NCBI GenBank assembly: GCA_934101645.1
Contig: CAKORX010000003.1
Coordinates: 5,179-69,178 of the forward strand
Length of the DNA: 64,000 nucleotides
Source: an uncultured Bacilli bacterium
Lineage (GTDB): Bacteria; Bacillota_I; Bacilli_A; RF39; UBA660
Direction: 5' to 3'
Shown: positions 4,825-62,730 of the stretch, in pieces
Layout of the letters: each line of letters opens with the position of its first letter
Numbering within the stretch: position 1 is the first letter of the stretch
Translations under genes and position numbers: made by a program
Notes under the pieces: model-generated
The model's database searches: none
Told to the model about the DNA's origin: nothing
Seen by the model: only the letters and a program-made list of their open reading frames with translations

Positions 4825-4833
4825 GCTTTTAAT

Positions 4834-5555: not shown

Positions 5556-5637
5556 AAAATTGCTTTTTTATTGACGTAAAATAACTTTCATAGTATAATT
5601 TAATCCCATTGATAAATACTATAAATGAGGTGTAAAT

Positions 5638-5668: not shown

Positions 5669-5692
5669 TAGCGTAATAAGGGGGAAATAGAA

Positions 5693-6112: not shown

Positions 6113-6138
6113 GCTGATTGGTGCTTATTTTTTTTATT
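6109..6138 (+). terminator. rho-independent terminator
   Basis: ATAAGC-tgattggt-GCTTAT hairpin followed by a T-run. Confidence 0.55.
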
Positions 6139-6185
6139 TTTTTATTGCTTTTTTAGTTTTTTTATAATATAATCATAGTGTTGTT

Positions 6186-6262
6186 GGACCTCTAGCTCAG
6201 TTGGTTAGAGCATCCGGCTCATAACCGGGCGGTCATAGGTTCGAGTCCTATGAGGTCCACCA
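6186..6262 (+). tRNA. tRNA with CAT anticodon, most likely tRNA-Ile2 (lysidine, k2CAU) rather than Met
   Basis: 77-nt cloverleaf GGACCTCTAGCTCAGTTGGTTAGAGC...CTCATAA...GGTTCGAGTCC...GGTCCACCA. It is highly similar to Bacillus tRNA-Ile(CAU) as I recall it, and ends in an encoded CCA. Confidence 0.8.
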
Positions 6263-6269
6263 TTCAATT

Positions 6270-6354
6270 GCAGGTATGGCGGAATTGGCAGACGCGTTAG
6301 ACTTAGGATCTAATGGAGTAATCCGTGGGGGTTCAAGTCCCTTTACCTGCACCA
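6270..6354 (+). tRNA. tRNA-Leu (TAG)
   Basis: 85 nt with a long variable arm, anticodon loop cuTAGga, GGTTCAAGTCC T-arm and encoded CCA. Confidence 0.85.
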
Positions 6355-6368
6355 ATTGAATAACTAAA

Positions 6369-6393
6369 GTCCCGTATATTCGGGCTTTTTTTA
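6369..6393 (+). terminator. rho-independent terminator after the tRNA pair
   Basis: GTCCCG-tatatt-CGGGC hairpin followed by T8. Confidence 0.6.
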
Positions 6394-6433
6394 TGATATA
6401 AAAAAACTTAATATTTGCATACTAAGTGTATTT

Positions 6434-7462: not shown

Positions 7463-7592
7463 AAGTAACCTTTCTAATAAACTAAAATAATTATATCATA
7501 GTTTTTTTATTTGAATAAATTAATTGTAAATAAGTGTTATGTTTGTGGTAAGTATTATTTTTTTTGTGATATAATCTTGTTTGAGGTATAAA

Positions 7593-9740
7593 ATGAATAA
7601 TATAATAATTGAAAATATTGCAAATAATTTAAATATAAAGGTATCACAAGTTCAAAAAACTTTAGAACTTTTAAGTGAGGGATGTACAATTCCATTTATT
7701 GCAAGGTATAGAAAAGAAGCCACAGGCGCACTTGATGAAGAACAAATAAGAAAAATAAACGAAGTATATGATTATGAAAATAAGTTATTAGAACGCAAAG
7801 AAAATGTTATAAAACTTATAGACGAAAAAGGATTATTAACCGATGAATTAAAAGATAAAATTATGTCTTCGGAAAAACTTGTCGAAGTTGAAGATTTATA
7901 TAGACCATTTAAAGAAAAAAAGAAAACTAAAGCTACGGATGCAATTAATAATGGTTTAGAACCACTTGCTAAAATGATTATGTCTTTCCCAGTTAAAGGA
8001 AATATTGAACTTTTAGCAGGAAAGTTTGTAAATGATAAAGTTAAAACTATTGATGATGCAGTAACCGGAGCAGGCTACATAATTGCAGAATATATTTCTG
8101 ATAATGCTTATTATAGAAAATGGATAAGAAACTATATATTTAAAAATGGAACGCTAGTAGCTAAAAAGAAAAAAGATGCTATTGATGAGAAAAAAGTTTA
8201 TGAAATGTATTATGATTTTTCTGAAAGCATAAGACTTATTAAGTCATATCGTGTACTTGCAATAAATAGAGCAGAAAAAGAAAAAATAATATCTGTTTCT
8301 TTAAATGTTGATAATGATAAAATAATTAGTTTTTTAGAAGAAAAAATTATTAAAAATAAAGAAAGTTTTGTAGTAAAAATTGTTGAAGATGCAATAAAAG
8401 ATAGCTATAAAAGGCTTATTTATCCAAGTATTGAAAGGGAGATTAGAGCGGAACTTTCTGATACAGCAGAATCTGTTGCAATTAAAAACTTTAGTGAAAA
8501 CTTAAATAATTTACTTTTAACACCACCAATAAAAGATAAGATTGTTTTAGGACTCGATCCTGCATTTAGAACTGGTTGTAAACTTGCAGTATTAAATCCT
8601 GTTGGTAAAGTTCTAACAATTGAGAAGATTTATCCACATGAACCGGTCAATAAATATGAAGAGGCTAAAATTAAAACAATTGATTTAATAAATAAATATA
8701 ATGTAGATATTGTTGCTATTGGTAATGGAACTGCCTCAAGAGAAAGTGAAAGATTTATTATTGATGTTTTAAAAAATGTAAATCATAAAGTTGATTATAT
8801 AATTGTTAGTGAGGCAGGAGCTTCAGTTTATAGTGCATCAAAACTTGCCATAAGTGAATTTCCAAATTTAGTTGTTGAGGAAAGAAGTGCAATAAGTATC
8901 GGTAGAAGACTTCAAGATGCTTTAGCAGAACTTGTAAAAATCGACCCAGAAAGTATTGGTGTAGGATTATATCAACATGATGTTAATGATAAAAAACTTT
9001 CTGAATCACTTGATTTTGTTGTAACAAAAGTTGTAAATGATGTCGGAGTAAATATAAATACCGCTAGTTCTTCACTTTTAAAATATGTTTCTGGAATGAC
9101 AAAGAATTTCATAGATAAAATTATTAATTATCGTGAAAACGAAGGGAAAATTACTTCTAGGGAAGAAATACTAAAAAATAAGTTATTAAGTGCTAAAGCT
9201 TATGAACAAGCAATTGGCTTTATGAGAGTTGAAGGTGGAACTAATCCATTTGATACTACAGATATTCATCCAGAAAGTTATGATGTTGCTAAAAAAATTA
9301 TGGATATTTTAAATATAAGTTATGATGATATAGGTAAAGAAAGTATTTTACCAAAACTTGATAATATAAATGAAGATGAACTAGTTAATCAAACTAAAAG
9401 TGATATTTATACAGTGCAGGGTATTTTAAATTCACTAAAAAAACCCCATAGAGATCCAAGGGATGAAATGCCAAAACCAATTCTTAAAAGTGATATTTTA
9501 GAAATAAAAGATTTAAGTATTGGCATGAAAATTCAAGGAACAGTTCGTAATGTTGTAGACTTTGGAGCATTTGTTGATATTGGACTACATAATGATGGTT
9601 TAATACATATTTCTAAAATGAGTAAAAATTATATTAAACATCCAAGTGAAATTTTGTCAGTTGGAGACATTGTAGATTGCTATGTAATAGGTATTGATAA
9701 AGAAAAAGAGAAAGTAAACCTTTCATTATTTAATGATTAA
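7593..9740 (+). CDS. tex: Tex-like RNA-binding transcription accessory protein (YqgF/HhH/S1 domains)
   Basis: About 715 aa with PFIARYRKE near the N-terminus, a central YqgF-like region, HhH motifs and a C-terminal S1 domain (GTVRNVVDFGAFVDIG). GAGG RBS lies before ATG 7593. Confidence 0.85.
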   Translation: MNNIIIENIANNLNIKVSQVQKTLELLSEGCTIPFIARYRKEATGALDEEQIRKINEVYDYENKLLERKENVIKLIDEKGLLTDELKDKIMSSEKLVEVEDLYRPFKEKKKTKATDAINNGLEPLAKMIMSFPVKGNIELLAGKFVNDKVKTIDDAVTGAGYIIAEYISDNAYYRKWIRNYIFKNGTLVAKKKKDAIDEKKVYEMYYDFSESIRLIKSYRVLAINRAEKEKIISVSLNVDNDKIISFLEEKIIKNKESFVVKIVEDAIKDSYKRLIYPSIEREIRAELSDTAESVAIKNFSENLNNLLLTPPIKDKIVLGLDPAFRTGCKLAVLNPVGKVLTIEKIYPHEPVNKYEEAKIKTIDLINKYNVDIVAIGNGTASRESERFIIDVLKNVNHKVDYIIVSEAGASVYSASKLAISEFPNLVVEERSAISIGRRLQDALAELVKIDPESIGVGLYQHDVNDKKLSESLDFVVTKVVNDVGVNINTASSSLLKYVSGMTKNFIDKIINYRENEGKITSREEILKNKLLSAKAYEQAIGFMRVEGGTNPFDTTDIHPESYDVAKKIMDILNISYDDIGKESILPKLDNINEDELVNQTKSDIYTVQGILNSLKKPHRDPRDEMPKPILKSDILEIKDLSIGMKIQGTVRNVVDFGAFVDIGLHNDGLIHISKMSKNYIKHPSEILSVGDIVDCYVIGIDKEKEKVNLSLFND

Positions 9741-9766
9741 GATAGATAAATTCTATCTTTTTTTCA
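9740..9766 (+). terminator. rho-independent terminator after tex
   Basis: AGATAGA-taaatt-CTATCT hairpin followed by T7. Confidence 0.5.
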
Positions 9767-9786
9767 TATAATCTATTGGTGATAGT

Positions 9787-10032
9787 TTGAATATAAAATA
9801 TGCTTTAGAAAATTTTTTGTATGATAAAGATTTTTTTATATCAATTTATAGTGGCCATGTATATGTTTATAATTATGATGAAATTGAAATATTAACAAAT
9901 GACAAAATAGTTTTAAAAATAAATAATTTTAAAGTAAATGTAATAGGTAGTAATTTAAAAATTGAAAAGTTAAATAAAAAAGAACTTCTTATTGAGGGAT
10001 TTATTAATAATATAGGAAAAATTTATGACTGA
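9787..10032 (+). CDS. yqfC: YabP/YqfC-family sporulation protein
   Basis: 81 aa. ...IYSGHVYVYNYDEIEIL...LKI...ELLIEGFI... fits the YabP/YqfC pattern. It is followed by yqfD as in Bacillus. TTG start. Confidence 0.65.
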   Translation: MNIKYALENFLYDKDFFISIYSGHVYVYNYDEIEILTNDKIVLKINNFKVNVIGSNLKIEKLNKKELLIEGFINNIGKIYD

Positions 10033-11158
10033 TTATATTTTAATTGAGGGTAGTGGAAAAAGTCTTAATGATGTTACTTTAAAATTAAACAATATAAATG
10101 TTGCTATTTATTTATCTTATGAAAAAAATAATCATTTTTATTTTAAAATTAAGTATCAAGATTTTGAAAAAATAAATAAATATTATAAATATTTAAATTT
10201 TAAAATAGTAAGATATTATGGATTAATATATTATAAAAAAATACTTAAGAAATATTATTTGATTTTTTTTAGTATGCTTACAATTTTTTTATTAGTTTTT
10301 GTGTTTTCACATGTTATTGTAGATGTAGAAATTGATCATGAAAACGAAAAGATAGTAAATTTACTTAAAGAAGAATTACGTGAGTATGGAATAAGCGCAT
10401 TTACTTTGAAAAAAAGTTTTACCAAATTAAATGAAATAAAAGAGAAGATTAAAACAAAATATAATGATAAAATTGATTGGTTAGAGATTAGTAGTAAAGG
10501 CATGAAATATATTGTAAAAGTCGAAGAGAAAATTATTCCTGAAAAAGAAATTAACCATTCGTACTGTGGTATTTATGCTTCAAATGATGGACTTATAAAA
10601 AGATTTAAAATATATAAAGGTAACAATTTAATAAAGATTAATGACTATGTAAAAAAAGGAGATTTACTTGTAAGCGGAGACATTTTTTTAAATGAAAATC
10701 AAGTGAATCAGGTTTGCGCAGATGCAAGCATTTATGCAGAAGTTTGGTATAATGTGAGTGTTGATATACCTTTTGAATATTATGAAACAAAGTTTACTAA
10801 AAAAAAGAGAAATAATTTTGTATTAAATATTAATGATAAAGATTATGTTTTACTAAATGATCGATTAAAAAATTATGAATCTAAAAATAAACTTATATTT
10901 GAGGGATTAGGAATTAAACTATATTTAAGAAAAGACTATGAGGTGAAAAAGAAAAAACTTATTTATAGTGAAGAAGAAATCATAAAAAAAGGTATTGATT
11001 TAGCTAAAGAAAAAATAAATTTAACTTTATCTAACGATGAAAGAATTATCGAAGAAAAAGTTTTGCAAAAAAATGCAAATGATAGTACAATGAATATGGA
11101 TGTGTTTATAGTAGTAGAAAAACAAATTGGCTCAAAGGTCATTTTAGAGGAGAAATAG
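10025..11158 (+). CDS. yqfD: sporulation protein YqfD
   Basis: 377 aa with a single TM. Synteny yqfC-yqfD-ybeY-dgkA-era-recO. Confidence 0.65.
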   Translation: MTDYILIEGSGKSLNDVTLKLNNINVAIYLSYEKNNHFYFKIKYQDFEKINKYYKYLNFKIVRYYGLIYYKKILKKYYLIFFSMLTIFLLVFVFSHVIVDVEIDHENEKIVNLLKEELREYGISAFTLKKSFTKLNEIKEKIKTKYNDKIDWLEISSKGMKYIVKVEEKIIPEKEINHSYCGIYASNDGLIKRFKIYKGNNLIKINDYVKKGDLLVSGDIFLNENQVNQVCADASIYAEVWYNVSVDIPFEYYETKFTKKKRNNFVLNINDKDYVLLNDRLKNYESKNKLIFEGLGIKLYLRKDYEVKKKKLIYSEEEIIKKGIDLAKEKINLTLSNDERIIEEKVLQKNANDSTMNMDVFIVVEKQIGSKVILEEK

Positions 11159-11159
11159 T

Positions 11160-11693
11160 GTGATTTATAACGTTTTAAAAAATAGTTTAATTAATATATG
11201 GCCATCATTAGTAATTGTTTTAGTAACAGTTTGCTGCATAAGGTATGCTTATTTACGCATAAATAAAATTAAGTTTGTTTTATATAAAGAGTTATTAATG
11301 ATGCTTTCACTTGTATACCTACTTCTTTTATACGAACTTGTAACAAGAGTTGATTATAATACTTTAGGAGGATTTAATATTATTCCTTTTACTGAAATTT
11401 TAAGATATAAAATTAATAGTGAACTATTTTTATTAAATGTTATTGGTAATATCGCCTTATTTATTCCATTTGGTTATATTGTTTCGGTATACATTAAACC
11501 TAAAAATATCTTTTATAACTTGTTAATTTCCATTATTGTAAGTTCTACGATTGAATTTGTTCAACTTAATATAGGTCGTAGTTTTGATGTTGATGATATT
11601 ATATTAAATACTATTGGTTGTAGTATTGGTTATTTGATTTATATATTTGTTAATAAATTAATGACTTTTTTAAGTGAAAAAACACTTAAATAG
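11160..11693 (+). CDS. VanZ-family membrane protein
   Basis: ...NIIPFTEILRY...NVIGNIALFIPFGY...DVDDIILNTIGCSIGYLIY... are VanZ-like motifs. It sits where phoH lies in Bacillus. Confidence 0.65.
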   Translation: MIYNVLKNSLINIWPSLVIVLVTVCCIRYAYLRINKIKFVLYKELLMMLSLVYLLLLYELVTRVDYNTLGGFNIIPFTEILRYKINSELFLLNVIGNIALFIPFGYIVSVYIKPKNIFYNLLISIIVSSTIEFVQLNIGRSFDVDDIILNTIGCSIGYLIYIFVNKLMTFLSEKTLK

Positions 11694-11745
11694 TTTGATT
11701 TGTTAAGTATTATTGGATATAATAGTTGCTAGTGGGGTATTCTAG

Positions 11746-12192
11746 ATGAATAAATTTGAAATAATAGATTTAGTTAAATATAAAAAATATGGTATTGTTA
11801 AAAAAGTTTTAAAAAGAACTTTGAAAATGGAAAAAGTTAACAATGCATTTTTTTCAGTTGTTTTAGTAGATGAAAAGAAAATTCAAGAAATAAATAAAGA
11901 ATATCGTAATATTGATAGAGTAACCGATGTTATATCATTTGCTTTTGAAGATAACGATAAACGTGAGTATAACGACATAAGAGTTTTAGGTGAAATATAT
12001 ATATGCATTCCAAGAATGAAAGAGCAAGCAAAAATGTATGGTCATAATGAAACTAGAGAGATAGCTTTTTTAGCTGTTCATGGGCTTTTACATTTACTTG
12101 GATATGATCATACAAAATCAAAAGAAGATGAAGAAATAATGTTTGGAAAACAGGAGTTGGTATTAAATGGATTTAATAAAACGCAAAGGTGA
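11746..12192 (+). CDS. ybeY: rRNA maturation endoribonuclease YbeY
   Basis: HGLLHLLGYDH metal-binding motif, 148 aa. Confidence 0.85.
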   Translation: MNKFEIIDLVKYKKYGIVKKVLKRTLKMEKVNNAFFSVVLVDEKKIQEINKEYRNIDRVTDVISFAFEDNDKREYNDIRVLGEIYICIPRMKEQAKMYGHNETREIAFLAVHGLLHLLGYDHTKSKEDEEIMFGKQELVLNGFNKTQR

Positions 12193-12565
12193 AAAAGTCG
12201 GACCAGTTAAAGATGTATTACATAAATTTAAATATTCTTTTCAAGGATTTATTTATTGTTATACTCATGAAACTAGTTTTATATTTGAAACAATTGGTAT
12301 AGTGGCAATTATTGTATGTGGTATTATTTTTAAAATTACTTTTATGCAATGGATTTTTGCTTTAATAAGTATGCTTCTTATAATGGAAATTGAATTTTTA
12401 AATACCGCTATAGAGGCTACTGTAGATTTAGTAACTCAAGAATATCATCCACTTGCAAAAGTAGCAAAAGATTGTGGCTCAGCAGCAACTTGTATGGCAA
12501 CATTTATGGCAATAATAGTAAATGCAATAATATTTTTGCCATATATAATAAGTTTATTTAAATAG
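12167..12565 (+). CDS. dgkA: diacylglycerol / undecaprenol kinase
   Basis: 132 aa three-TM protein with EIEFLNTAIEATVDL resembling DgkA. Conserved position between ybeY and era. Confidence 0.75.
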   Translation: MDLIKRKGEKVGPVKDVLHKFKYSFQGFIYCYTHETSFIFETIGIVAIIVCGIIFKITFMQWIFALISMLLIMEIEFLNTAIEATVDLVTQEYHPLAKVAKDCGSAATCMATFMAIIVNAIIFLPYIISLFK

Positions 12566-46058: not shown

Positions 46059-46391
46059 ATGTTAAAAATGAATTTAGAATTCAATAAAGGTATTTTATTT
46101 GTTAGATTAGATGGAATGCTTAATAGAGCTACAACATATAAAGTTAATAATTATCTAGTGCCAGTTATATTAAAACATAAAATTAAATATTTAGTTTATA
46201 ATTTATATGCTTTAGAAGATATTGATGAAACTGGAATTGATGCTTTATTAAATACAAAATTTGCTATAAAAAGTAATAAAGGAGTAATATATTTTTGTGA
46301 AGTAAGTGATTATTTAAATAAAAAATTACATAAATTACACATAAAAAAGATTGATAATGAATTAGTGGCATCAAAATTAATTGAGGTTTAG
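46059..46391 (+). CDS. spoIIAA: anti-sigma-F factor antagonist (STAS domain), SpoIIAA-like
   Basis: 110 aa. ...ILFVRLDGML...IKYLVYNLYALEDIDETGIDALLN... aligns with the SpoIIAA phosphorylation segment (DLSFMDSSGLG), but with Thr at the phospho-Ser position. Confidence 0.7.
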   Translation: MLKMNLEFNKGILFVRLDGMLNRATTYKVNNYLVPVILKHKIKYLVYNLYALEDIDETGIDALLNTKFAIKSNKGVIYFCEVSDYLNKKLHKLHIKKIDNELVASKLIEV

Positions 46392-46394
46392 AAA

Positions 46395-47033
46395 ATGACT
46401 AAAGAACAAATCATTAACGAAAATGCTGGCTTAATTTATGAAATAGCAAAGAAGTTTTATGGTTATCCGAAAGAAGATTTATTTCAAGCAGGTGTTCTAG
46501 GTTTATTAAAAGCCTTTAAAAATTATGATCCTAGTTACGGAGCAAAGTTTTCAAGTTTTGCATATACTTCAATTTATGGAGAAATGTATTTACTAGTTAA
46601 TAATCGAAGTATGAAAATAAATAGAGAAGCTTTAAATTTATATAAGTTAATCGAACAAACTAGATTTTCTTTGGCTCAAAAGCTTGGCCATGTTCCAAAT
46701 TATAATGAAGTTGCAAATTTCTTGGAAATGGACCCCGTTAAAATTTATGATGCTGTAATAGCAGGTCAAGCTGTGATGAGTTTAGATAGTGCTGAAAATG
46801 CACCATTATATGATATTATTAAAAAAGAGGAAAGAACTTCTTTAGATGATAAATTGTTCTTAGATGAAGGTTTAAGTGTACTTTCCGAAGATGAAAAAAA
46901 TATTATTAAATCGAGATATTTTGATGATTTAACTCAAAGTGAAGTTGCAAGAAAACTTAGAATGACTCAAGTAATGGTTTCAAGATATGAGAAAAAAGGT
47001 ATTCAAAAAATGAGAGAGTATATGACTTTATAA
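46395..47033 (+). CDS. sigF: sporulation sigma factor, SigF-like (sigma-70 regions 2-4)
   Basis: ...DLFQAGVLGLLKAFKNYDP..G.KFSSFAYTSIYGEM... (region 2) and ...TQSEVARKLRMTQVMVSRYEKKGIQKM (region 4.2). It lies between spoIIAA and spoVAC as in Bacillus. At 212 aa it is about 40 aa shorter at the N-terminus than B. subtilis SigF. Confidence 0.7.
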   Translation: MTKEQIINENAGLIYEIAKKFYGYPKEDLFQAGVLGLLKAFKNYDPSYGAKFSSFAYTSIYGEMYLLVNNRSMKINREALNLYKLIEQTRFSLAQKLGHVPNYNEVANFLEMDPVKIYDAVIAGQAVMSLDSAENAPLYDIIKKEERTSLDDKLFLDEGLSVLSEDEKNIIKSRYFDDLTQSEVARKLRMTQVMVSRYEKKGIQKMREYMTL

Positions 47034-47079: not shown

Positions 47080-47517
47080 TTGGACAAAGAAGAATATAAA
47101 AAACTTGTAAAGGAAAAATATCCTAAAGAAAAAAGAGCAAAAAATGCACTTATAGCTTTTTTAGTTGGAGGATTAATAGGCTTAGGTGGTCAAATTTTAA
47201 CAAGATTACTTGTTTTAACTTTTGGTATTTCAAAAATGATGAGTTATAGTGTTGTTTGTTTAGTAATAATTTTTCTTGCAGCTTTATTTACGGGACTTGG
47301 ATTTTTTGATGACTGGGTAATTAAAACTAAATGTGGTTTAATTATTCCTACGACAGGATTTGCTCATAGTATAACAAGTTGTGCCTTAGAATATAAAAAA
47401 GATGGAATGATTACGGGACTTGGTGCAAATTTTTTTAAACTAGCGGGTTCTGTAATATTATATGGTATAATTTCTGCATTTTTCTTATGTATAATAAAGG
47501 TGGTATTTTATGGGTAA
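47080..47517 (+). CDS. spoVAC: stage V sporulation protein AC
   Basis: ...KNALIAFLVGGLIGLGGQIL... is a typical SpoVAC membrane protein. TTG start. Confidence 0.8.
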   Translation: MDKEEYKKLVKEKYPKEKRAKNALIAFLVGGLIGLGGQILTRLLVLTFGISKMMSYSVVCLVIIFLAALFTGLGFFDDWVIKTKCGLIIPTTGFAHSITSCALEYKKDGMITGLGANFFKLAGSVILYGIISAFFLCIIKVVFYG

Positions 47518-48484
47518 TATTAAATTTAATAATGTTTATATTAAAGATTATTTTACTTTAGTAGGTCCCAAAGAAAAAGATAGTAAGATAACAAATTATG
47601 ATTTAGGTTTTAAAGATAGTTATTTTGGTGAAAAAACCTTTGAACTTGCGGAAATTAAAATGCAAAAAGTAGTTATTCAAAATCTACTTAATAAAAATAA
47701 TTTAAGTGAAAATAGTATAAATTATGTAGTAGGTGGAGATTTAATTAATCAGATTGCTATAACAAGTTATACTATGATGGATTATTTAATTCCTTTTGTG
47801 GGAGTTTATGCAGCTTGTGCTACTTTTCCATTATCAGTAATATTAGGAGCAAATCTAATAGAGAGTAAAAATGCTAAAAATATTATCACTCTTACTTCCT
47901 CGCACAATTTAACTGCCGAAAGACAATATCGATATCCTGTTGAATATGGTTCGCCGAAACCTAAAACATCAACATGTACTTTAACTTCGAGTGTTGGTGC
48001 GCTTCTATCTAACGATAAAACAAATATCAAAATTTCTGGTGGACTAATCGGCAAAGTTATAAACTTAGGAATCAATGATGTAAATCATATGGGAGCTATA
48101 ATGGCTCCAGCCTGTGCTGATACAATACATACATTTTTAGAAAATAGTAAAGAAAATGTGAAAGATTATGACTTAATTTTAACAGGAGATTTAGGAAGTG
48201 TAGGTTTAGAAATTTTAAAGGAATATTATGAAAGGGTTTATGGTAGTCGTTTAACAAAAATAATGGATGCTGGTAGTGAGATATTTTTAGCAAGTGATAT
48301 GTTTTCAGGTGGTTCTGGACCTTGCTGTTTACCTCTTATATTTTTTACTAAAATACTTAAGAATAAACGTTATAAAAAAATTCTTCTTGTAGGAAGTGGT
48401 TCTTTGCATACAACAGTTTTAGTAAATCAACATCAAACAGTTCCTGCAATAAGCCATTTAGTTAAAATTGAGGTGATATCATGA
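47510..48484 (+). CDS. spoVAD: stage V sporulation protein AD
   Basis: 324 aa, thiolase/KAS-like fold with an active-site Cys region (...YAACATF...). Conserved order AC-AD-AEb. Confidence 0.8.
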   Translation: MGNIKFNNVYIKDYFTLVGPKEKDSKITNYDLGFKDSYFGEKTFELAEIKMQKVVIQNLLNKNNLSENSINYVVGGDLINQIAITSYTMMDYLIPFVGVYAACATFPLSVILGANLIESKNAKNIITLTSSHNLTAERQYRYPVEYGSPKPKTSTCTLTSSVGALLSNDKTNIKISGGLIGKVINLGINDVNHMGAIMAPACADTIHTFLENSKENVKDYDLILTGDLGSVGLEILKEYYERVYGSRLTKIMDAGSEIFLASDMFSGGSGPCCLPLIFFTKILKNKRYKKILLVGSGSLHTTVLVNQHQTVPAISHLVKIEVIS

Positions 48485-48831
48485 TTTATTTAAATTCATT
48501 TTTATTTGCTGGCTTTATTTGCATGTTAGGACAAATAATACTTGATAATTCCAAACTTACTCCGGGACATATAACTTCAATATTTACTGTAGTTGGCGTT
48601 CTTCTATCATTTTTTGAAATCTATCCATCATTAGTGGAAAAATGCGGAATTGGAGCAACCTCATTAATAATTAATTTTGGAAATATGCTTTTTTTAGGGG
48701 GAATGGAAGGTTTCGAAGAAAGTGGGCTAATCGGAATTTTTTCGGGACTTCTTTGTAAAAGTTCATTAGCAATAACTGGAGCAATAGTATTTGCTTTTAT
48801 AATTACAATATTTTGTAAACCAAAAAATTAA
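48481..48831 (+). CDS. spoVAEB: stage V sporulation protein AEb
   Basis: 116 aa, 3 TM, ...GHITSIFTVVG...GATSLIINFGNMLFLGG.... Confidence 0.8.
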   Translation: MIYLNSFLFAGFICMLGQIILDNSKLTPGHITSIFTVVGVLLSFFEIYPSLVEKCGIGATSLIINFGNMLFLGGMEGFEESGLIGIFSGLLCKSSLAITGAIVFAFIITIFCKPKN

Positions 48832-53696: not shown

Positions 53697-56600
53697 ATGG
53701 GTATATTAGATATTTTAAAAGATAATTTGGTTATATCAAGGATAAGTAGAAAATCAAATTTAGAAATAGAGCAATTAGTTAATTTAACTGATAATCAACT
53801 AAAAAAATTAATGAGCAATAAAGAGATTTATTTGATTGATTTAGGAAAAATATCTTCATATGATTTGCTAAAAAAACTTATTGAACTTTATAAATTTTCA
53901 AAGGATGATTATAAAAGTGTCAGTTTACTTTTAAGTATGGCTGATGAAAAAATGTATAAAATTTTAGAAACAAGCAATGTTTCAAATATTAAAAATAACT
54001 TGTGCGAAGAAAGCATTAAAAAATTTATATCAGAGCCTTCATATACAATAGATATTAATTTATTTTCTGAAGAATTTATAAAGGAACACGATGATATTTT
54101 TCTAGTTAATACGCTTCCGGAAGATATCAGAAAAAAATATTATGAAAAGAAGATTACTGAAAAAGATTTGTTAGATAATATTGAAGTATTGTGTAAGGTA
54201 AAATATCAAAATATAATTTTAGATAACGTAAATTATAAAGATGATAATTCTAAAAATTTTATTTTAAAACTAGGATTAGATGGTTTAGAAAAAATTACTA
54301 GCAATTTAGGAGCAAATTTTTATCGTATTTATAACGATCAAAACAAAATGGAAGAAATGTGTAAATTCCTAGAGCAAAAAAATCCGAATGATTATTATAT
54401 AGGTGTTGTAAATTATTTATATACTGATGAAGAGTTTTTAAGTGCTTTAGGTATTCAGCAATTTAATAATGAACTGAATTTTTATGGTCAATATTATCTT
54501 GAAAAAATAAATAAAAATAATATTAATAAAATAGATTTAACAAATTATTTTAATAAAGTTTTTTCTGATTATCAAAGAGAAAGTAGTTTTTATAATTTTA
54601 TGAAAAATATGATAACTATTTTATCAAGAAATGAAACTATAAATAGTACTGAAGAATTATTTGAAAAAGTGGCAGTAGCTACAGCTAAAGAAAAAGGAGA
54701 TAATTCACAAGAATTTACTAGTGAATTCATAAAAACTCATCAGCAATATTTTTTGCCAAATGATGCTCCAGATACACTTAAAGAAAAATTTTATAATAAA
54801 TCTCTAACATATAAAGATGTATTAGATAATCTTGCATATTTTTCTAATACGAATATATCATTAGCTTTTTTTGATGAAACAGATAATCGATGTGGTTTAT
54901 TTGATAATAATCTTTTTCTAAAGATGCTTCAGATTTGTGATGGTAATTTGAAAAACTTAAATTGCACTTTCTTTGAAAATATTTTATCTCGACCAGATTC
55001 CAAAATTAATTTTATATCATCTTATGATGAATTTTTATCAATATTTGAAAAGTATTATATGAGTAATGGTATACCAATCAAAGATTTTGAGATTTTAAAA
55101 AAGATTGGTTTTAATAAAAGTTATTTAAACGAAATCGAAGAAAATATTAAAAATTATAATCTACAAAAAGATAACATCAAGTGTGATCTTCGTCTTTTTA
55201 CTAATAATATTATGAAAAAATTTGATATTAATATTATAAAAGCACTTATGACTTATTACCATAGTGGAGCTGTTTCTTTATTAATAAATTATAGCAATGA
55301 TGATGTAATTGTAAATAAAATTAATACTTTGCTAGCACTATTAAGTAAAAGCGATAATAATTTTATTAATGGTAAAAATATAAATTATATTATTCTTTCA
55401 TTTGACAAATGTAGAAGTCTTTTTGATAGTATTATAAAAAATAATACTGTTTTAAATGAAGTACAAATAAAAAACTTAAATGATATTTTAGCTAATAGAA
55501 ATAAATATAATATAGAAAATATTGAGCAGTTAACAAATTACAGTACATATAAGAAAAAAATATTAAATGAAAAACTTGAAAGTAGTAATTTGACCGATGT
55601 ACAATCTGCGATTACTGAATGTTTGTTTTCAATCGACAGAGAATCAATTATTGATTTAAATTCTGTTTATGGTATTTTTAAAGATAAAATGTATCTAAAA
55701 AAAATACAGCCATATTTACCTGTTGATATTGCTGCTGCATTAGAAATAATAAAAGAGGTTTATAATAACTCTGATATTAATAATTTAAAAGCAATATTTG
55801 ATAATTGTATGGAGTTAGGAAATGTTGGTATTAATGCTGTACAAATTAAAACAGCTCTTCGAAATGCATATGAAAAACTTTATATTAGTGAATTATTTAA
55901 AGGTGAAGGAAATAGGGAATACTATATAAATGGGGTTAATAGTGATATATGTACTCATAATGTAAATGGTGAAAAAATTTCATCAGAAAATACTATTAAA
56001 GTAGTTGAACTTAATGACAAGCCATTTAAATTAATAGTACATCATATATTTGTTGGTTCACCAGATCCTTTGTTTAAAGATATTCCTAGTAGAATAATTA
56101 AAAATCCTGAAATTTGGAATACTAAAGAGGGAGCAACTACATTATCTACTACCATAATTTCAAATTCTTGTATTAAAACATTTGGTGTAAATCAACCAGG
56201 GTCCCATATATATTATGGATTTAATGAATTACCATTTGATGTTTTAAGAGGTACTTTTCCAGCAGATGCGGGTACTTTACATGGAGGAGGCCAACTTGAG
56301 GCATTAAGTGGTGCCTACCAAATAAATACACTAGATTATTTAATTAATGTTACAACTGCTCATTCACCTTATAATGAAATTGTATTAATGCGAAGAAGTC
56401 CTATTAAAAATAAATTTGATGGTAGAATTCAACCTAATTGTATTGTTACTTTTGATGATAACATTGATGAATATACAAAATTAGCGGCTCAATATTTTAA
56501 TGTTCCAATTTATAAAATTAATTATAATAAGTATTGGGAAATTAATAGGCAAAACATTGATAAATATTTAAATGGAAAAATAGAAAAATTTGATAATGAT

Positions 56601-56855
56601 GATATAGAAATGATTTTTTCTACTGATTTTGGAAGTTTAAATAGAAATGTAAACAAAGTAGAAATGTGTATTCAACTATTAAAAAAAGCACTAAATGAAA
56701 ATCTAATAAATAATGAACAATATTATGATAGGGTGCAACATATTTTAGATTATGTTGAGGAGAATGGTATAATAATACAACCAGATGATTTAATCAAACT
56801 TAATAGCATTTTAAGTAATAGAATTGAGGTGAATGAAAATGAACTTACAAAATGA
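53697..56855 (+). CDS. 1052-aa orphan protein with internal repeats and an unassigned C-terminal globular domain
   Basis: Long uninterrupted ORF. Repeat units SEEFIKEHDDIFLVNTLPEDIRKKYYEKKITEKDLLDN (aa ~124-166) and SEFIKTHQQYFLPNDAPDTLKEKFYNKSLTYKDVLDN (aa ~342-382). The C-terminal ~270 aa has different composition (HHIFVGSPDP...STTIISNS...HGGGQLEALSGAY...). Confidence 0.55.
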   Translation: MGILDILKDNLVISRISRKSNLEIEQLVNLTDNQLKKLMSNKEIYLIDLGKISSYDLLKKLIELYKFSKDDYKSVSLLLSMADEKMYKILETSNVSNIKNNLCEESIKKFISEPSYTIDINLFSEEFIKEHDDIFLVNTLPEDIRKKYYEKKITEKDLLDNIEVLCKVKYQNIILDNVNYKDDNSKNFILKLGLDGLEKITSNLGANFYRIYNDQNKMEEMCKFLEQKNPNDYYIGVVNYLYTDEEFLSALGIQQFNNELNFYGQYYLEKINKNNINKIDLTNYFNKVFSDYQRESSFYNFMKNMITILSRNETINSTEELFEKVAVATAKEKGDNSQEFTSEFIKTHQQYFLPNDAPDTLKEKFYNKSLTYKDVLDNLAYFSNTNISLAFFDETDNRCGLFDNNLFLKMLQICDGNLKNLNCTFFENILSRPDSKINFISSYDEFLSIFEKYYMSNGIPIKDFEILKKIGFNKSYLNEIEENIKNYNLQKDNIKCDLRLFTNNIMKKFDINIIKALMTYYHSGAVSLLINYSNDDVIVNKINTLLALLSKSDNNFINGKNINYIILSFDKCRSLFDSIIKNNTVLNEVQIKNLNDILANRNKYNIENIEQLTNYSTYKKKILNEKLESSNLTDVQSAITECLFSIDRESIIDLNSVYGIFKDKMYLKKIQPYLPVDIAAALEIIKEVYNNSDINNLKAIFDNCMELGNVGINAVQIKTALRNAYEKLYISELFKGEGNREYYINGVNSDICTHNVNGEKISSENTIKVVELNDKPFKLIVHHIFVGSPDPLFKDIPSRIIKNPEIWNTKEGATTLSTTIISNSCIKTFGVNQPGSHIYYGFNELPFDVLRGTFPADAGTLHGGGQLEALSGAYQINTLDYLINVTTAHSPYNEIVLMRRSPIKNKFDGRIQPNCIVTFDDNIDEYTKLAAQYFNVPIYKINYNKYWEINRQNIDKYLNGKIEKFDNDDIEMIFSTDFGSLNRNVNKVEMCIQLLKKALNENLINNEQYYDRVQHILDYVEENGIIIQPDDLIKLNSILSNRIEVNENELTK

Positions 56856-57009
56856 TGAACTAACAAAAGATGAAAAACTTGTTTATCTATTAAATAAAAT
56901 CGAAGAAGATAGCAATTGTAATCCTCATAAAGAAGTAATAAATGATTTAAAAATGAAACTAATATTAAAGATGAATACTGATATAGAATCTTTAGATGAT
57001 AAAAATTAA
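56839..57009 (+). CDS. possible 56-aa small ORF overlapping the 3' end of the 1052-aa gene
   Basis: GAGGTGA RBS 6 nt upstream of ATG 56839, giving MNLQNDELTKDEKLVYLLNKIEEDSNCNPHKEVINDLKMKLILKMNTDIESLDDKN. Not in the supplied track. Confidence 0.3.
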   Translation: MNLQNDELTKDEKLVYLLNKIEEDSNCNPHKEVINDLKMKLILKMNTDIESLDDKN

Positions 57010-57189
57010 TTCATAATAAATGATTTAAATAGGGTTGATGTTTATTTAACACTTTACACCAATTTGATATTAAAGTATAAAAATATACTATAATTAATGG
57101 ATGTTATAATACTTAACTTAATCATACATGGGTGGAATTGAAAAAATAGTTCCTAAGAAATAACTTGAGTTTAAAAGCTCATTTTTTTC

Positions 57190-57218
57190 TTGCAATTTTT
57201 TAATGTAATATTTATAAT
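57190..57218 (+). promoter_or_regulatory. putative promoter of the antitoxin/toxin pair
   Basis: TTGCAA (57190-57195), 17 nt spacer, TATAAT (57213-57218), about 30 nt before ATG 57250. Confidence 0.45.
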
Positions 57219-57249
57219 GTGTTTTAGGCAGTACGTAATAAGGAGAAAT

Positions 57250-57726
57250 ATGTTAACAGCAAAGGACGTGGCAGAATACTTTCTTTCTAAAGATCCAAAT
57301 AAAAAAATATTTAACAAAAATATTATGATTTATAATGGAATAAGATTTTATGAAGGAAATGTAAAATTAAATAAGTATCTATTTTTATCTCAAGTTGTAT
57401 ATCTAGCAAAATATGGAAAAAAATTATTTGAAGATGATTTTATTGCTTATGATAATGGACCTGTAATTGAAAAAATAAGAAATCTTTATGTAAGACTTAA
57501 AGGACGTAATAGTCATATTAATTTACAAACTAAAATTTTTTTAGACAAAATATATTTGTCACTTGAAAATGCTACAACACAGGAACTAATTGAAATAAGT
57601 CATGAAGATCCAGAATGGCAACGCTTAAAAAATATGACCCATAAAAATATTAAAATGGATGTTGAAAGTAATATCAAAGAATATAAAGAAAGATATGAAG
57701 GATTAATAAAAGCCTTAAAAATATGA
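57250..57726 (+). CDS. Panacea-domain (DUF4065, SocA-like) putative antitoxin
   Basis: MLTAKDVAEYFLSK...KLNKYLFLSQVVYLAKYGKKLFEDDFIAYDNGPVIEKI...HEDPEWQRLK matches the SocA/DUF4065 pattern (ALDVAAYIL...KLQKLLYYAQAWSL...PLFDE.IEAW.NGPVV...AEDPWR). AAGGAG RBS lies before ATG 57250. Confidence 0.7.
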   Translation: MLTAKDVAEYFLSKDPNKKIFNKNIMIYNGIRFYEGNVKLNKYLFLSQVVYLAKYGKKLFEDDFIAYDNGPVIEKIRNLYVRLKGRNSHINLQTKIFLDKIYLSLENATTQELIEISHEDPEWQRLKNMTHKNIKMDVESNIKEYKERYEGLIKALKI

Positions 57727-58145
57727 TTAATAAATTAAAAGTTGGTCAAGTGTTATGGCTTAAAGTTAGGTATCAGAGTAATTTGGTATCTATGACTAAA
57801 CATCCTATGCTTATAGCAAAAATAAAATATGGTTATATTGAAGTTATTGCATTAGATAAAATAAAAGGAAAATTACAAAATTTATATTATCCATATAATT
57901 ATTTTATTGATTCGGATAATCCTAAAGAGACTGTTTTATATGAAGATAGTTATGCTCAGTTAAATACAAAATTAACTATAGAGTTTTTTCCAGAATTACT
58001 ATTATTTAGAAAAACTACGTCAGTTTTATCAAAAGTAAAATTAAATGAATTATTAAAGGCTTATAGAAAATATCAAAGAAAATATGGGATAAAAAGTGAA
58101 AGAATAATTTATATGTCAAAAAAAGATATTCAAAAATTTAATTAA
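57723..58145 (+). CDS. uncharacterised 140-aa protein, putative cognate toxin (possible MazF/PemK-like barrel)
   Basis: Overlaps the antitoxin stop by 4 nt (ATGA). Residues ...VGQVLWLKVRY...KHPMLIAKI...IEVIALDKIKGK...YFIDS...LSKVKLNELLKAYRKY follow the MazF/PemK beta-strand pattern, but only loosely. Confidence 0.4.
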   Translation: MINKLKVGQVLWLKVRYQSNLVSMTKHPMLIAKIKYGYIEVIALDKIKGKLQNLYYPYNYFIDSDNPKETVLYEDSYAQLNTKLTIEFFPELLLFRKTTSVLSKVKLNELLKAYRKYQRKYGIKSERIIYMSKKDIQKFN

Positions 58146-58195
58146 TATTGTTTTAAATAATAAAATATGCTAAATTAAATGTAATTGGAGGGTTT

Positions 58196-58411
58196 ATGGA
58201 AAATTTAATTGGTTATAAAAATAAATTAATTGGTATTAGAAATGAAATCCTTGAGTCGTTAAAAAGTGCAGAAAGTAAAGATGAAATGAGAAATTTTTTA
58301 ATAAAACTTCATAATGTAAATGAAAGAATTAAAAATGTAGAAATTAAAATTCAAGAAGAACAAAGAGAAAGTCAAAGAAGTGGTAGTAGTCATTTTGGAC
58401 TATTTAAATAA
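58196..58411 (+). CDS. hypothetical 71-aa coiled-coil protein
   Basis: GGAGGG RBS. Predicted helical/coiled coil. No family. Confidence 0.35.
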   Translation: MENLIGYKNKLIGIRNEILESLKSAESKDEMRNFLIKLHNVNERIKNVEIKIQEEQRESQRSGSSHFGLFK

Positions 58412-58570
58412 AAATTTATAAAAGATTACTTAGAAAAATGTCGAAAAAGCAAACCTACATATCTTTAATTATTAAACTCAAATTTTGAGTTTATTTTTTT
58501 GTAAGTGCATTGACAAAACTCTAAATGATGATATAATTACTCATGTGCATAAAAAGTATGTGAGGTTTGT

Positions 58571-59020
58571 ATGAAAAGAAGTATTTTGAAAAGCGTTAAA
58601 ACATTTCACCAATTAGTTATTAATAGTATGGGAGTTAGGAATATGCCAAAATATCCAAATGTTACAACTACCCAAATTGAAATTATGGAATATATTATAA
58701 ATAGCCCTAAAAAATATGCACTTCAAAAAGAATTTGAAAAGGTATTAGGACTTTCTAGAGCTACGGTTTCAAGTGTTTTAATAACAATGGAAAAAAATGG
58801 TTTAATTGTAAGAATTACTGACAATAATGATACTAGAACTAAAAAAATAGTTTTAAGTAATAATGCTCAAAAAGTATTTGAAAGTAGTAAAGAAAAAATT
58901 GAAAGTCTTGAAAAAAAATGTATTAGTGGAATAAATGAAGAAGATTTAAATACATTTATAAAGGTTTTATCTAAAATGACAGAAAATTTGAAGGAGGAAA
59001 AAAATGTTAAAATTATTTAA
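58571..59020 (+). CDS. MarR-family transcriptional regulator
   Basis: ...TTTQIEIMEYI...LQKEFEKVLGLSRATVSSVLITMEKNGLIVR... is a winged-HTH MarR signature. Precedes the ABC exporter genes. Confidence 0.75.
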   Translation: MKRSILKSVKTFHQLVINSMGVRNMPKYPNVTTTQIEIMEYIINSPKKYALQKEFEKVLGLSRATVSSVLITMEKNGLIVRITDNNDTRTKKIVLSNNAQKVFESSKEKIESLEKKCISGINEEDLNTFIKVLSKMTENLKEEKNVKII

Positions 59021-60761
59021 AAATTTAAGAAAAAAAGATTATTTACTTATTTTGGTATGTGCAATAATTATTTTCTTAGAAGTTTGGTTAGAATTAAAAA
59101 TGCCAGATTATATGAGTAATATAACAGTTCTTGTTCAAACTGAAGGTAGTAAAATGCGTGAGATACTAAAAAATGGTGGATACATGCTTTTATGTGCTTT
59201 TGGTTCTTTAATTGGAGCTGTTATAACAAGCTATATATTAACTTATGTATCAACCACGTTTTCTAAAAATGTTAGAAAAAAAGTTTTTTCAAAAACCATG
59301 GATTTATCAACTGCAGAGGTAAAAAACTTTTCTGTAAGTAGTTTGATTACAAGAACTACAAATGACGTAAGCCAAATTGAAATGTTTTTATCAATGGGAT
59401 TATCACTTTTAATGAAAGCACCAATGACTGCTGCATGGGCTATAATTAAAATATTAAATAAAAGTTGGCAATGGAGTGCTTTAACAGCATCTTGCGTTGT
59501 TGTACTTCTTATAACAATTGGAATTATTACAAGTATTGTTATGCCAAGATTTTCTTTAGTGCAAAAATTAATCGATAAAGTAAATCGTGTAACAAGAGAA
59601 AATTTAACAGGCATTAGAGTTGTACGTGCATTTAATGCTGAAAAATTTCAAGAAAATAAATTTCAAAAAGAAAATGATACACTTACAAACACTCAACTTT
59701 TCAATCAAAAATGTTTTGCAGTATTAGAGCCAATTATGACTATGGTAATGTATACGTTAACTTTAGGTATTTACTTTATTGGCGCAAGTCTTATAAATAA
59801 TGCCTTAATGACTAATAAATTAACTCTTTTTGGAGATATGGTAGTATTTTCTACTTATGCAATGCAAATAATTATGTCATTTATTATGCTTTCAATGATT
59901 TTTATGATTTTACCAAGAGCAAATGTATCTGCACAAAGAATTAATGAAGTTCTTGATGAAAAGATAACTGTCAATGAAGGTGCATTTGACGGAAAAACAA
60001 GTGAAGTTGGAACGATAGAATTTAAAAATGTGTCATTTAAATATCCTGATGCTGATGAATATTTATTAAGAGATATTTCATTTAAGGCAGAAAAAGGCCA
60101 GACTGTTGCCTTTATAGGTTCAACGGGAAGTGGAAAAAGTACTCTTATAAATTTAGTGCCAAGATTTTATGATGCTACCGATGGAGAAGTATTAATTGAT
60201 GGTATAAATGTAAAAGAATATAATTTTGAAAGTTTATATAATAAACTTGGTTATGTTTCTCAAAGAGCAGTTATGTTTGATGGAACAGTTAAATCAAATG
60301 TTTCTTATGGTAAATCAAATAGAAAAATAACAGCTGATAAAGTCAAAGAAGCTTTGGAAATCGCTCAAGGATATGACTTTGTTTCTAAAATGGATAAAGA
60401 TATAGATTCACATATAGCATCTGGTGGAACAAATGTATCTGGAGGTCAAAAACAAAGATTATCTATTGCAAGAGCAATTGCTAAAGATCCTGAAATATAT
60501 ATATTTGATGACTCTTTTTCAGCTCTTGATTATAAAACTGATTCATCACTTAGAAAGGCTTTAAAAGAAAATGCAAAGGGTGCGACAACTTTAATTGTAG
60601 CGCAAAGAATTGGAACTATTCTTAATGCAGATAAGATTATTGTTCTTGATAATGGAAAGATGGTTGGCATGGGAACTCACAAAGAATTACTAAAAAATTG
60701 TGATGTTTATAAAGAAATTGCTTATTCACAGCTTTCTAGAAAGGAGCTTGAAAATGCATAA
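59004..60761 (+). CDS. ABC transporter permease/ATP-binding protein (type I exporter half-transporter)
   Basis: Six-TM domain followed by an NBD with Walker A GSTGSGKST, signature VSGGQKQR and Walker B IYIFDDSFSALD. Confidence 0.85.
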   Translation: MLKLFKNLRKKDYLLILVCAIIIFLEVWLELKMPDYMSNITVLVQTEGSKMREILKNGGYMLLCAFGSLIGAVITSYILTYVSTTFSKNVRKKVFSKTMDLSTAEVKNFSVSSLITRTTNDVSQIEMFLSMGLSLLMKAPMTAAWAIIKILNKSWQWSALTASCVVVLLITIGIITSIVMPRFSLVQKLIDKVNRVTRENLTGIRVVRAFNAEKFQENKFQKENDTLTNTQLFNQKCFAVLEPIMTMVMYTLTLGIYFIGASLINNALMTNKLTLFGDMVVFSTYAMQIIMSFIMLSMIFMILPRANVSAQRINEVLDEKITVNEGAFDGKTSEVGTIEFKNVSFKYPDADEYLLRDISFKAEKGQTVAFIGSTGSGKSTLINLVPRFYDATDGEVLIDGINVKEYNFESLYNKLGYVSQRAVMFDGTVKSNVSYGKSNRKITADKVKEALEIAQGYDFVSKMDKDIDSHIASGGTNVSGGQKQRLSIARAIAKDPEIYIFDDSFSALDYKTDSSLRKALKENAKGATTLIVAQRIGTILNADKIIVLDNGKMVGMGTHKELLKNCDVYKEIAYSQLSRKELENA

Positions 60762-62730
60762 TAAAAAAATGGAAAATGCAAAAGATTTTAAGGGTTCACT
60801 TAAAAGACTTGTAAAGGAATTAAAACCATTTAAAGTACTTGTTATAATAAGTTTAATTTTAGCTATTTTTGGTTCAGTACTTACAATAAGTGCTCCGAAT
60901 AGACTTTCTAAACTAACTGATGAAATTCAAAAAGGGTTAGTTATTAATTCAAAAAATCTAAATACTTTAAATGAAAAAATAGAAACATCTTTTGGAAGTG
61001 ACATTGTTATTGATAATGTTACTATAAGTATGAACGATCAATTAGAATATGTTAATGCTTTAAAAACGTTAAAAAAGGGTTCAAGTGCAAAAGAATTATA
61101 TAATGCACTTGAAAACATGCCAGAAAGTGTTCAAAAAGTAATTAAACCAAAAATGGATATTAAAACAATTAAAAACATATGTATTATGCTTTTAACTGTT
61201 TATTTTGTAAGTAGTATATTTGGCTTTTTACAAGCACTTGCCATGACTAATGTATCAAATAATTTTGCTAGAACATTAAGAAAAAGAATATCACAAAAAA
61301 TTAATAAATTACCTCTTAAATATTTTGATAATCATCAAACTGGAGATATATTATCAAGAGTAACAAATGATGTTGATACACTTGCTCAAACACTTAATAA
61401 TTCGCTTTCTTCACTTGCAAGTAATGTGACATTATTATTTGGCTCAATTATTATGATGTTTAAAACAAATGCAGTTATGAGTTTAACAGCAATACTTTCA
61501 TCATTAATAGGTTTTGTTTTTATGGCAATAATTCTTTCTAAGAGTCAAAAATATTTTGTAAAAAGACAAGAAGGTTTAGGAAAACTTAATAGTCATATTG
61601 AAGAGATTTATTCTGGACTTAACGTTGTTAAAGTTTATAATGGACAAGATGATGCAAACAAAAAATTTGATAAAATAAATAAAGAGGTTAGTGAATGTAG
61701 TAGAAAAAGTGGTTTCTTATCAGGACTTATGCATCCAATGATGAGCTTCGTAGGTAATTTTGGTTATGTTGCTGTATGCATAGTTGGTGCACTTCTTACA
61801 ATGAATGGTAAAATTACTTTTGGTGTAATTATTGCCTTTATTACATATGTAAGACTATTTACAATGCCACTTTCATCAATAGCACAGGAATTTACTTTTA
61901 TACAATCCGCTTTAGCATCTTCAGAAAGAGTATTTGAATTTCTAGATGAAGAGGAAATGTCTAAAGAAGAAAATAAAGAAAAACTTGATAAAGATAGTGT
62001 AAAAGGAAATATTGAGTTTAACCACGTTTCATTTAAATATGATGAAAACGGCAAAACAATTATTAAAGATTTTTCTGCAAAAGTTAAATCGGGTCAAAAA
62101 ATTGCTATTGTAGGACCAACTGGTGCAGGTAAAACAACTATGGTAAACTTACTTATGAAGTTTTATGATATACATGATGGAGATATAACTATTGATGGAA
62201 AAAGTATTCATGATTTAACAAGAGAAAATATTCATAATTTATTTACTATGGTACTTCAGGATACTTGGCTTTTCGAAGGAACAGTTAAAGATAATATTAG
62301 ATATAATAATTCAAAAATTACTGATAAAGAAATAGAAAATGTATGTAAATATATTGGACTAGATCATTTTATTAAAACACTTCCAAATAATTATGATACT
62401 GTAATTTCTGAAAATGATAATATTTCCGCAGGACAAAAACAACTTCTTACAATTGCAAGAGGTATGTGTGAAGAGGCTCCACTTTTAATACTAGATGAAG
62501 CTACATCAAATGTTGATACTAGAACTGAGGAACTTGTTCAAAAAGCTATGGATAAACTAATGGAAGATAAAACATCATTTATAATTGCCCACAGACTTTC
62601 AACTATAAAAAATGCTGATTTAATATTAGTTATGAATGAAGGAAATATTATAGAGCAAGGTTCTCATGATGAACTTATGAAAAAAGATGGCTTTTATGCT
62701 AAACTTTATAATTCTCAATTTGAATTATAA
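60754..62730 (+). CDS. ABC transporter permease/ATP-binding protein (heterodimer partner, extended extracellular loop)
   Basis: TMD plus NBD with Walker A GPTGAGKTT, signature ISAGQKQL and Walker B LLILDEATSNVD. AGGAG RBS lies before ATG 60754. Overlaps the upstream stop. Confidence 0.85.
   Translation: MHNKKMENAKDFKGSLKRLVKELKPFKVLVIISLILAIFGSVLTISAPNRLSKLTDEIQKGLVINSKNLNTLNEKIETSFGSDIVIDNVTISMNDQLEYVNALKTLKKGSSAKELYNALENMPESVQKVIKPKMDIKTIKNICIMLLTVYFVSSIFGFLQALAMTNVSNNFARTLRKRISQKINKLPLKYFDNHQTGDILSRVTNDVDTLAQTLNNSLSSLASNVTLLFGSIIMMFKTNAVMSLTAILSSLIGFVFMAIILSKSQKYFVKRQEGLGKLNSHIEEIYSGLNVVKVYNGQDDANKKFDKINKEVSECSRKSGFLSGLMHPMMSFVGNFGYVAVCIVGALLTMNGKITFGVIIAFITYVRLFTMPLSSIAQEFTFIQSALASSERVFEFLDEEEMSKEENKEKLDKDSVKGNIEFNHVSFKYDENGKTIIKDFSAKVKSGQKIAIVGPTGAGKTTMVNLLMKFYDIHDGDITIDGKSIHDLTRENIHNLFTMVLQDTWLFEGTVKDNIRYNNSKITDKEIENVCKYIGLDHFIKTLPNNYDTVISENDNISAGQKQLLTIARGMCEEAPLLILDEATSNVDTRTEELVQKAMDKLMEDKTSFIIAHRLSTIKNADLILVMNEGNIIEQGSHDELMKKDGFYAKLYNSQFEL

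Follow-up and report, generated by a model that had tools for sequence, protein, structure and literature searches.

A candidate type II PanAT toxin-antitoxin module with a MazF-fold toxin in an uncultured gut Bacilli genome

Panacea antitoxins pair with 88 toxin clusters, several of which (T5, T6, and T9) were recognized as MazF-like through CDD or HHpred (Kurata et al. 2022 PNAS, PMC8832971). The MazF-like PanT toxins of P. moraviensis and B. ruminantium are toxic, are neutralized by PanA, and block protein synthesis; in the same study, the PanA-PanT pairs examined by pull-down form complexes (Kurata et al. 2022, PMC8832971). Stand-alone Panacea domains are able to neutralize toxins directly, and a role as sensors has been proposed for them (Ernits et al. 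2023, PMC10440598). Here, we describe a two-gene locus, panA-panT, on contig CAKORX010000003.1 of an uncultured Bacilli bacterium; the window is the whole 64,000-nucleotide stretch of this contig that was analyzed. We propose, with about two chances in three, that panA-panT forms a type II PanAT toxin-antitoxin (TA) module on the chromosome, in which a MazF-fold RNase toxin is silenced by PanA. A Panacea antitoxin with a MazF-like toxin is a kind of system already described and validated (PMC8832971). Thus, the initial annotation of this DNA, which called the locus a candidate new PanA-toxin pair, stands for the toxin, whose family is unannotated, and not for the combination.

The core of the locus, in window coordinates, is as follows:

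57240..57245, + strand: AAGGAG, ribosome-binding site (RBS) of panA, read directly from the sequence
57250..57726, + strand: panA, 158 aa, with ATG at 57250 and TGA stop at 57724-57726
57723..57726, + strand: ATGA stop/start overlap of panA and panT, read directly from the sequence; translational coupling
57723..58145, + strand: panT, 140 aa, basic (isoelectric point 9.8), a MazF/PemK-fold toxin candidate

Judged by its domain matches, PanA is a stand-alone Panacea (DUF4065) protein without an N-terminal helix-turn-helix, PAD1, or ZBD domain. It matches the SocA_Panacea profile (Pfam PF13274) end to end, at positions 1-113 of 113, with an E-value of 1.6e-12 and 48.7 bits against a gathering score of 25.7, and the assignment of this open reading frame (ORF) to Panacea/DUF4065 from its letters alone was therefore right. 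Within PHROGs, it matches phrog_1281 (E 4e-19), and a PDB sequence search with PanA retrieved no solved relative. Conservation among PanA homologues is full-length, C-terminal tail included, and a GGAG-type RBS is also kept 5' of panA in related loci.

The length of 178 aa first given to the PanA-like protein, counted from a TTG at 57190, was rejected. The ATG at 57250 after AAGGAG gives 158 aa, and both the public contig gene calls and the homologues have 158-160 aa. The longer reading is an artefact of mechanical ORF listing, since that TTG belongs to the -35 hexamer of a candidate promoter described below. The TGA stop of panA is real, since translation follows the standard code here: genetic code 4, by which that stop would vanish, was rejected, as table 11 keeps long ORFs intact and Trp is encoded by TGG.

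PanA and PanT are paired across genomes far beyond chance. We scanned one genome per GTDB species using a close-homologue alignment (A1, 60-70% identity) as the profile, and this gave 48 loci. In all 48, the gene directly upstream of the PanT homologue encodes a PanA homologue, and for distant PanT relatives (19-40% identity) the gene directly upstream has a Panacea match in 5/5; this is what a neighborhood search for homologues of the 140-aa protein beside DUF4065 genes, suggested in the initial annotation, returned. The ATGA overlap, also reported there, is present and conserved among species: the spacing between panA and panT is -4 in 25 loci, while 10 more have -7 and a further 8 have -1 or +2 (43/48). 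Kurata et al. (2022) defined PanAT loci by a partner at ≤100 nt, an architecture present in at least two species, and no conserved longer operon. Here, the two genes overlap by 4 nt, the architecture recurs in 48 species and five distant relatives, and neither the third ORF downstream (orf3) nor the upstream ORFs are conserved. Where the locus is degraded (L053, L055, and L056), both genes show decay.

The flanking genes of the pair vary among species. In its own species, the pair sits between the seryl-tRNA synthetase (SerRS) gene and a MarR-ABC group, and in others it is found with leucyl-tRNA synthetase, gyrase/topoisomerase IV, or ribosomal protein genes, or, once, in an island with PLD-like, integrase-fragment, and GmrSD genes. 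As the neighborhoods differ while the pair stays together, panA and panT represent an autonomous, co-inherited module.

The PanT family is small and self-contained. Its homologues form 414 to 473 clusters at 90% identity in a 5.8-billion-protein collection, all of about 140 aa, and when 1.84 billion representatives were searched exhaustively with a profile, 141 clusters at 50% identity emerged. Everywhere, they are unannotated or labelled "hypothetical protein". The 48 carrier genomes are all metagenome-assembled genomes (MAGs), labelled as uncultured Bacilli, Tenericutes, Mollicutes, Clostridia, or similar; in the species-level scan, the family is found only in uncultured gut Bacillota MAGs.

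The fold of PanT became visible through structure prediction. Searched against Pfam, NCBIfam, PHROGs, and PADLOC, PanT had no match, and PDB sequence searches with its profiles from A1 and from a family-wide alignment of 48 sequences (A2) gave noise only. With A1, AlphaFold2 (AF2) modelled PanT at a predicted local distance difference test score (pLDDT) of 36; with A2, the model reached a pLDDT of 96.6 and a predicted template-modelling score (pTM) of 0.90. This model is a MazF/Kid/CcdB-type SH3-like barrel with a C-terminal helix. When compared to PDB with Foldseek, its first 40 matches are all MazF, Kid, CcdB, or CptN (best E 1.4e-4; TM-scores 0.55-0.69), and its matches in BFVD are phage proteins named "PemK-like" or "endoribonuclease".

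Remote sequence similarity points the same way. The PemK_toxin profile (PF02452) has sub-threshold matches in 5/48 PanT relatives, with a best E-value of 2.7e-4; in relative P0181, the match extends from profile position 7 to 102 of 109 and reaches 17.0 bits, the gathering score being 23.1. We also used hhalign to compare A2 with four MazF/Kid sequences, each checked to be identical to a PDB chain, and obtained an E-value of 4.7e-4 and a score of 28.1 over 102 colinear columns. As controls, 100 column shuffles scored 10.5 ± 2.0 (maximum 18.4, with at most 29 aligned columns) and the reversed alignment 9.7. On these structural and remote-sequence grounds, PanT is a highly diverged relative of the MazF/PemK/Kid fold, as predicted here. 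The 140-aa protein had been loosely threaded onto a MazF/PemK barrel in the initial annotation, and AF2 with Foldseek and hhalign agree with that threading. The fall-back offered with it, that the toxin domain may be new, finds no support at the level of the fold; what lacks annotation is only the sequence family.

The profile alignment sets His27-Pro28 of PanT opposite Arg25-Pro26 of MazF and Asp45 opposite Thr48. In Bacillus MazF, Arg25 and Thr48 form the catalytic pair; at these positions, MazF4 and MazF7 of Mycobacterium tuberculosis tolerate Lys and Ser, with Lys at the R25 position in MazF4 (PMC7354611). We noticed no published report of His at this position. Of the 48 PanT relatives, 40 have His and 7 have Arg at position 27, 44 have Pro at position 28, and 33 have Asp and 9 have Ser at position 45. 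Ser occupies position 46 in 36/48, where the PanT of the window has Lys. Other strongly conserved positions are G8, Q9, E69-T70, D75-S76, Y114, and Y117, and the C-terminal Asn140 is kept in 46/48. Past the usual C-terminal helix, the model adds a strand (128-131) and a helix (133-139), an extension of about 20 residues.

The most divergent toxin relatives (L057 25-675; L059/L060 245-946) retain the canonical Arg-Pro, within RRPFLVI. They pair with a longer PanA, of 216-233 aa against 158 aa for the stand-alone PanA, which presumably has an extra N-terminal domain. On the contig of another distant relative (L061 3463-3795), a HicB-like antitoxin gene lies directly 3' of the PanAT pair, which indicates that TA genes are clustered there.

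Compared to the MazF/PemK-like PanATs of Kurata et al. (T5, T6, and T9), the locus is alike in its stand-alone Panacea antitoxin, antitoxin-first order, and 4-nt overlap, and in a MazF fold with little or no domain-database signal. It differs in the C-terminal extension of about 20 aa. Moreover, gp28 of Listeria phage B025 (T9), which is paired with gp27, carries a canonical S-R-P motif, whereas the family described here mostly has H-P, and hhalign of the A2 profile against gp28 gave a non-significant E-value of 0.35 over 10 columns. The PanT sequence family appears to be uncatalogued; within T5, T6, and T9, the comparison covered gp28 of T9, and the family may yet coincide with one of these clusters. 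The RefSeq-based survey of 2022 is unlikely to have sampled this family, because it is seen only in uncultured gut MAGs.

When compared to canonical MazF/PemK/Kid toxins (MazEF, PemIK, and Kis-Kid), PanT scores below the Pfam gathering score, has His for Arg in 40/48 relatives and Asp or Ser at the Thr48 position, and carries the extra C-terminal strand and helix. The antitoxin is also of another type: Panacea here, and AbrB- or RHH-type (ribbon-helix-helix) MazE/PemI in MazEF/PemIK.

In the mechanism that we propose, panA and panT would be transcribed together and their translation coupled through the ATGA overlap, so that the antitoxin would be made with or before the toxin. PanA would bind PanT directly and keep it inactive. 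PanT would be released when PanA is lost or turned over, or when Panacea senses a cue –possibly phage infection–, and free PanT, by analogy dimeric, would act as a sequence-specific endoribonuclease and bring translation and growth to a stop. In its active site, His27 (Arg in a minority) and Asp45, with the neighboring Ser/Lys46, would take the places of MazF Arg25 and Thr48. The analysis establishes which domain PanA has, how the genes are arranged, that the pair is strictly co-conserved, and which fold PanT takes, whereas we infer complex formation, toxicity, RNase chemistry, and the trigger.

Several points weigh against this proposal. By the profile alignment that maps these residues, and not by an inspected structural superposition, the PanT of the window is without both canonical MazF catalytic residues, having His27 for Arg and Asp45/Lys46 at the Thr. 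Neither this PanT nor any relative reaches the PemK gathering score (23.1 bits), so PanT is not a PF02452 member by Pfam's definition, and the window protein gave no match to PF02452 even at E≤10. Among the published MazF-like PanTs, those of Listeria phage B025 (gp28) and F. xanthum are non-toxic in E. coli (PMC8832971), and that of C. bovis is toxic yet not neutralized (Kurata et al. 2022, PMC8832971). PanA is without a DNA-binding domain, and nothing like an operator palindrome turned up between the -35 and the panA start codon, which gives autoregulation no visible basis. Finally, INPHARED phages, PLSDB plasmids, and IMG/VR contigs yielded no PanT homologues. This leaves carriage of panT by phages or plasmids unsupported, and, with only one of the sampled contexts resembling a defence island, a defence role finds little backing.

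That role would be abortive-infection phage defence, with Panacea sensing the phage and freeing the MazF-like RNase. It is compatible with the proposed mechanism, and we regard it as a tentative possibility. In its favor, Panacea has been proposed as a sensor, with the fused CapRel system as a parallel (Ernits et al., PMC10440598), and in one species GmrSD_N, PLD-like, DUF2828, and integrase-fragment genes share an island with the pair; however, the other four sampled contexts are housekeeping, PADLOC gives no match, and phage and viral collections hold no homologues. The island belongs to the P0022-carrying species (L005-L008, about 450-12400). It has the look of a defence island, with a PLD-like protein of 861 aa, a phage-integrase fragment of 80 aa lying on the opposite strand, and DUF1810, GmrSD_N, Metallophos, and DUF2828/DUF7788 genes, and its gene content is variable among strains.

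A more speculative extension, which we think unlikely as a whole, takes PanT as an offshoot of the MazF fold that is exclusive to Panacea. It would have a His-based catalytic center, or would have lost RNA cleavage and gained a new target. The C-terminal strand-helix and the terminal Asn would be a new interface for the substrate or for PanA, and the stand-alone Panacea domain would be the sensor of the trigger in sporulating low-GC gut Bacillota, none of them cultured so far.

PanT could also be a catalytically degenerate MazF fold, that is, a non-toxic or weakly toxic partner binding RNA or protein, with the pair being regulatory or sensory. By the profile alignment, the canonical Arg and Thr are indeed absent in the window protein, the pair lies among housekeeping genes in most species, and several MazF-like PanTs are non-toxic in E. 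coli (PMC8832971). However, the strong conservation of His/Arg-Pro, G8, Q9, D45/S46, E69-T70, and D75-S76 speaks for an active or binding site that has been maintained, and the strict coupling to an antitoxin-type gene fits a product that is harmful when unpaired. His is, besides, able to function as general acid/base in RNases. Degeneration is, in our opinion, an improbable account of this family.

SocAB is the type VI TA system of Caulobacter, and its toxin SocB is a DnaN-binding protein. By this model, PanA would be a proteolytic adaptor that passes PanT to ClpXP for constant degradation. SocA founded the Panacea family, as told by the Pfam name of PF13274, a domain that both antitoxins have in common, and PanA weakly matches the NCBIfam model SocA_antitoxin (NF047745, E 2.4e-6). 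However, this match covers 41 residues only and reaches 27.4 bits, far below the equivalog cut-off of 190; the toxins are unrelated, PanT resembling MazF and not SocB. All the PanAT pairs tested by Kurata et al. reportedly gave stable type II complexes (PMC8832971). Thus, a SocAB-like adaptor is very unlikely here, and the mechanism is probably direct PanA-PanT binding.

Equally hard to believe is that PanT acts like CcdB, of the same fold superfamily, poisoning DNA gyrase or topoisomerase IV with no RNA cleavage, since CcdB scores below every MazF, so that the closest affinity is not CcdB, and since synteny is the simplest explanation for the gyrase genes near the pair in three other species. 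In these species, the pair is directly downstream of or near gyrB/gyrA- or parE/parC-type genes (L065/L066 687-5182; L067/L068 1-4137; L064 11274-12429), which is probably residual synteny.

Taken as a PanAT module, the locus widens the range of these systems to uncultured Bacillota of human and animal guts and adds an unannotated family, with no Pfam, NCBIfam, PHROG, or PADLOC model, to the set of Panacea-partnered toxins. It is a further case of a MazF fold revealed only by structure prediction with a deliberately diverse alignment. The natural Arg-to-His swap at the MazF catalytic position offers a ready test of active-site tolerance. At the practical level, the family is of value for annotation, for instance through a new model in Pfam or NCBIfam, and could enter TA and phage-defence screens as a candidate.

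Around the two genes, we located the following transcription signals and a third ORF:

57166..57188, + strand: hairpin and U-run, with a 6-bp inner stem at 57166-57181 followed by UUUUUUU (RNA fold -9.5 kcal/mol, z -2.3)
57190..57218, + strand: sigma-70-like promoter candidate, TTGCAA-17-TATAAT, matching 10/12 consensus positions
58196..58411, + strand: orf3, 71 aa, Lys/Glu-rich, predicted helical, with its own GGAGGG RBS
58473..58501, + strand: 9-bp hairpin and U-run (RNA fold -7.2 kcal/mol, z -2.5)

The hairpin at 57166-57188, just 5' of the -35, is likely the terminator of the preceding unit and the 5' boundary of the module, and the one at 58473-58501 is likely an intrinsic terminator closing the panA-panT-orf3 unit. 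With hairpins flanking these three genes and none found between panT and orf3 by RNA folding, they likely form a single transcription unit, and orf3 is probably co-transcribed with the pair in this genome. As for the promoter that the initial annotation assigned to the pair, the motif is present at 57190-57218, but it is indistinguishable from background: promoter-like sites in this 22%-GC region number 15, against 17.3 expected from shuffles. Because such sites are no commoner than in shuffles, the match alone is no evidence, and a promoter here is plausible and unproven. Motifs like TTGnnn-17-TAnnnT also occur 5' of panA in most related loci.

The small coiled-coil ORF noticed downstream, orf3, does exist, but it is species-specific and outside the conserved module. 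A tblastn search of contexts L005-L008 and of the loci from the 47 other species found no orf3 homologue beside the pair, and we rejected orf3 as a third component of the module, given its absence from all 47 other species. Against Pfam, NCBIfam, and PHROGs, it gave sub-threshold family matches only.

Directly upstream of the pair is a 1052-aa Asn/Ile/Lys-rich ORF (53697-56855, + strand), its end overlapped by a 58-aa ORF (56833-57009). For the 1052-aa ORF, searches of Pfam, NCBIfam, PHROGs, and PADLOC gave no match. Among the 48 pair-carrying species, both ORFs are found in this one only, and they are outside the module. The region from 53.2 to 58.6 kb has a GC content of 20-24% (briefly up to 27.5% near 56 kb) versus 27-33% in the SerRS and ABC genes on either side, a difference that suggests an accessory insertion.

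Downstream, the next unit has a promoter of its own:

58510-58537, + strand: MarR promoter, TTGACA-16-(TG)TATAAT, matching 12/12 consensus positions

After this promoter, still within 58510-58564 (+ strand), a 9-bp hairpin overlaps the RBS region of a MarR-family gene (58571-59020) and could be a regulatory leader. The MarR-family gene heads a two-gene ABC exporter operon (59004-62730).

Elsewhere in the window, at 46059-47033 (+ strand), a gene for a sigma-70-family (SigF-like) sigma factor starts 3 nt past a STAS-domain (SpoIIAA-like) gene. There is no ORF for a SpoIIAB-like anti-sigma kinase between these two genes, and the spoIIA operon is possibly unusual. Genes like spoVAC, spoVAD, and spoVAEb come next, at 47080-48831; by these genes, this low-GC uncultured Bacilli MAG has sporulation genes.

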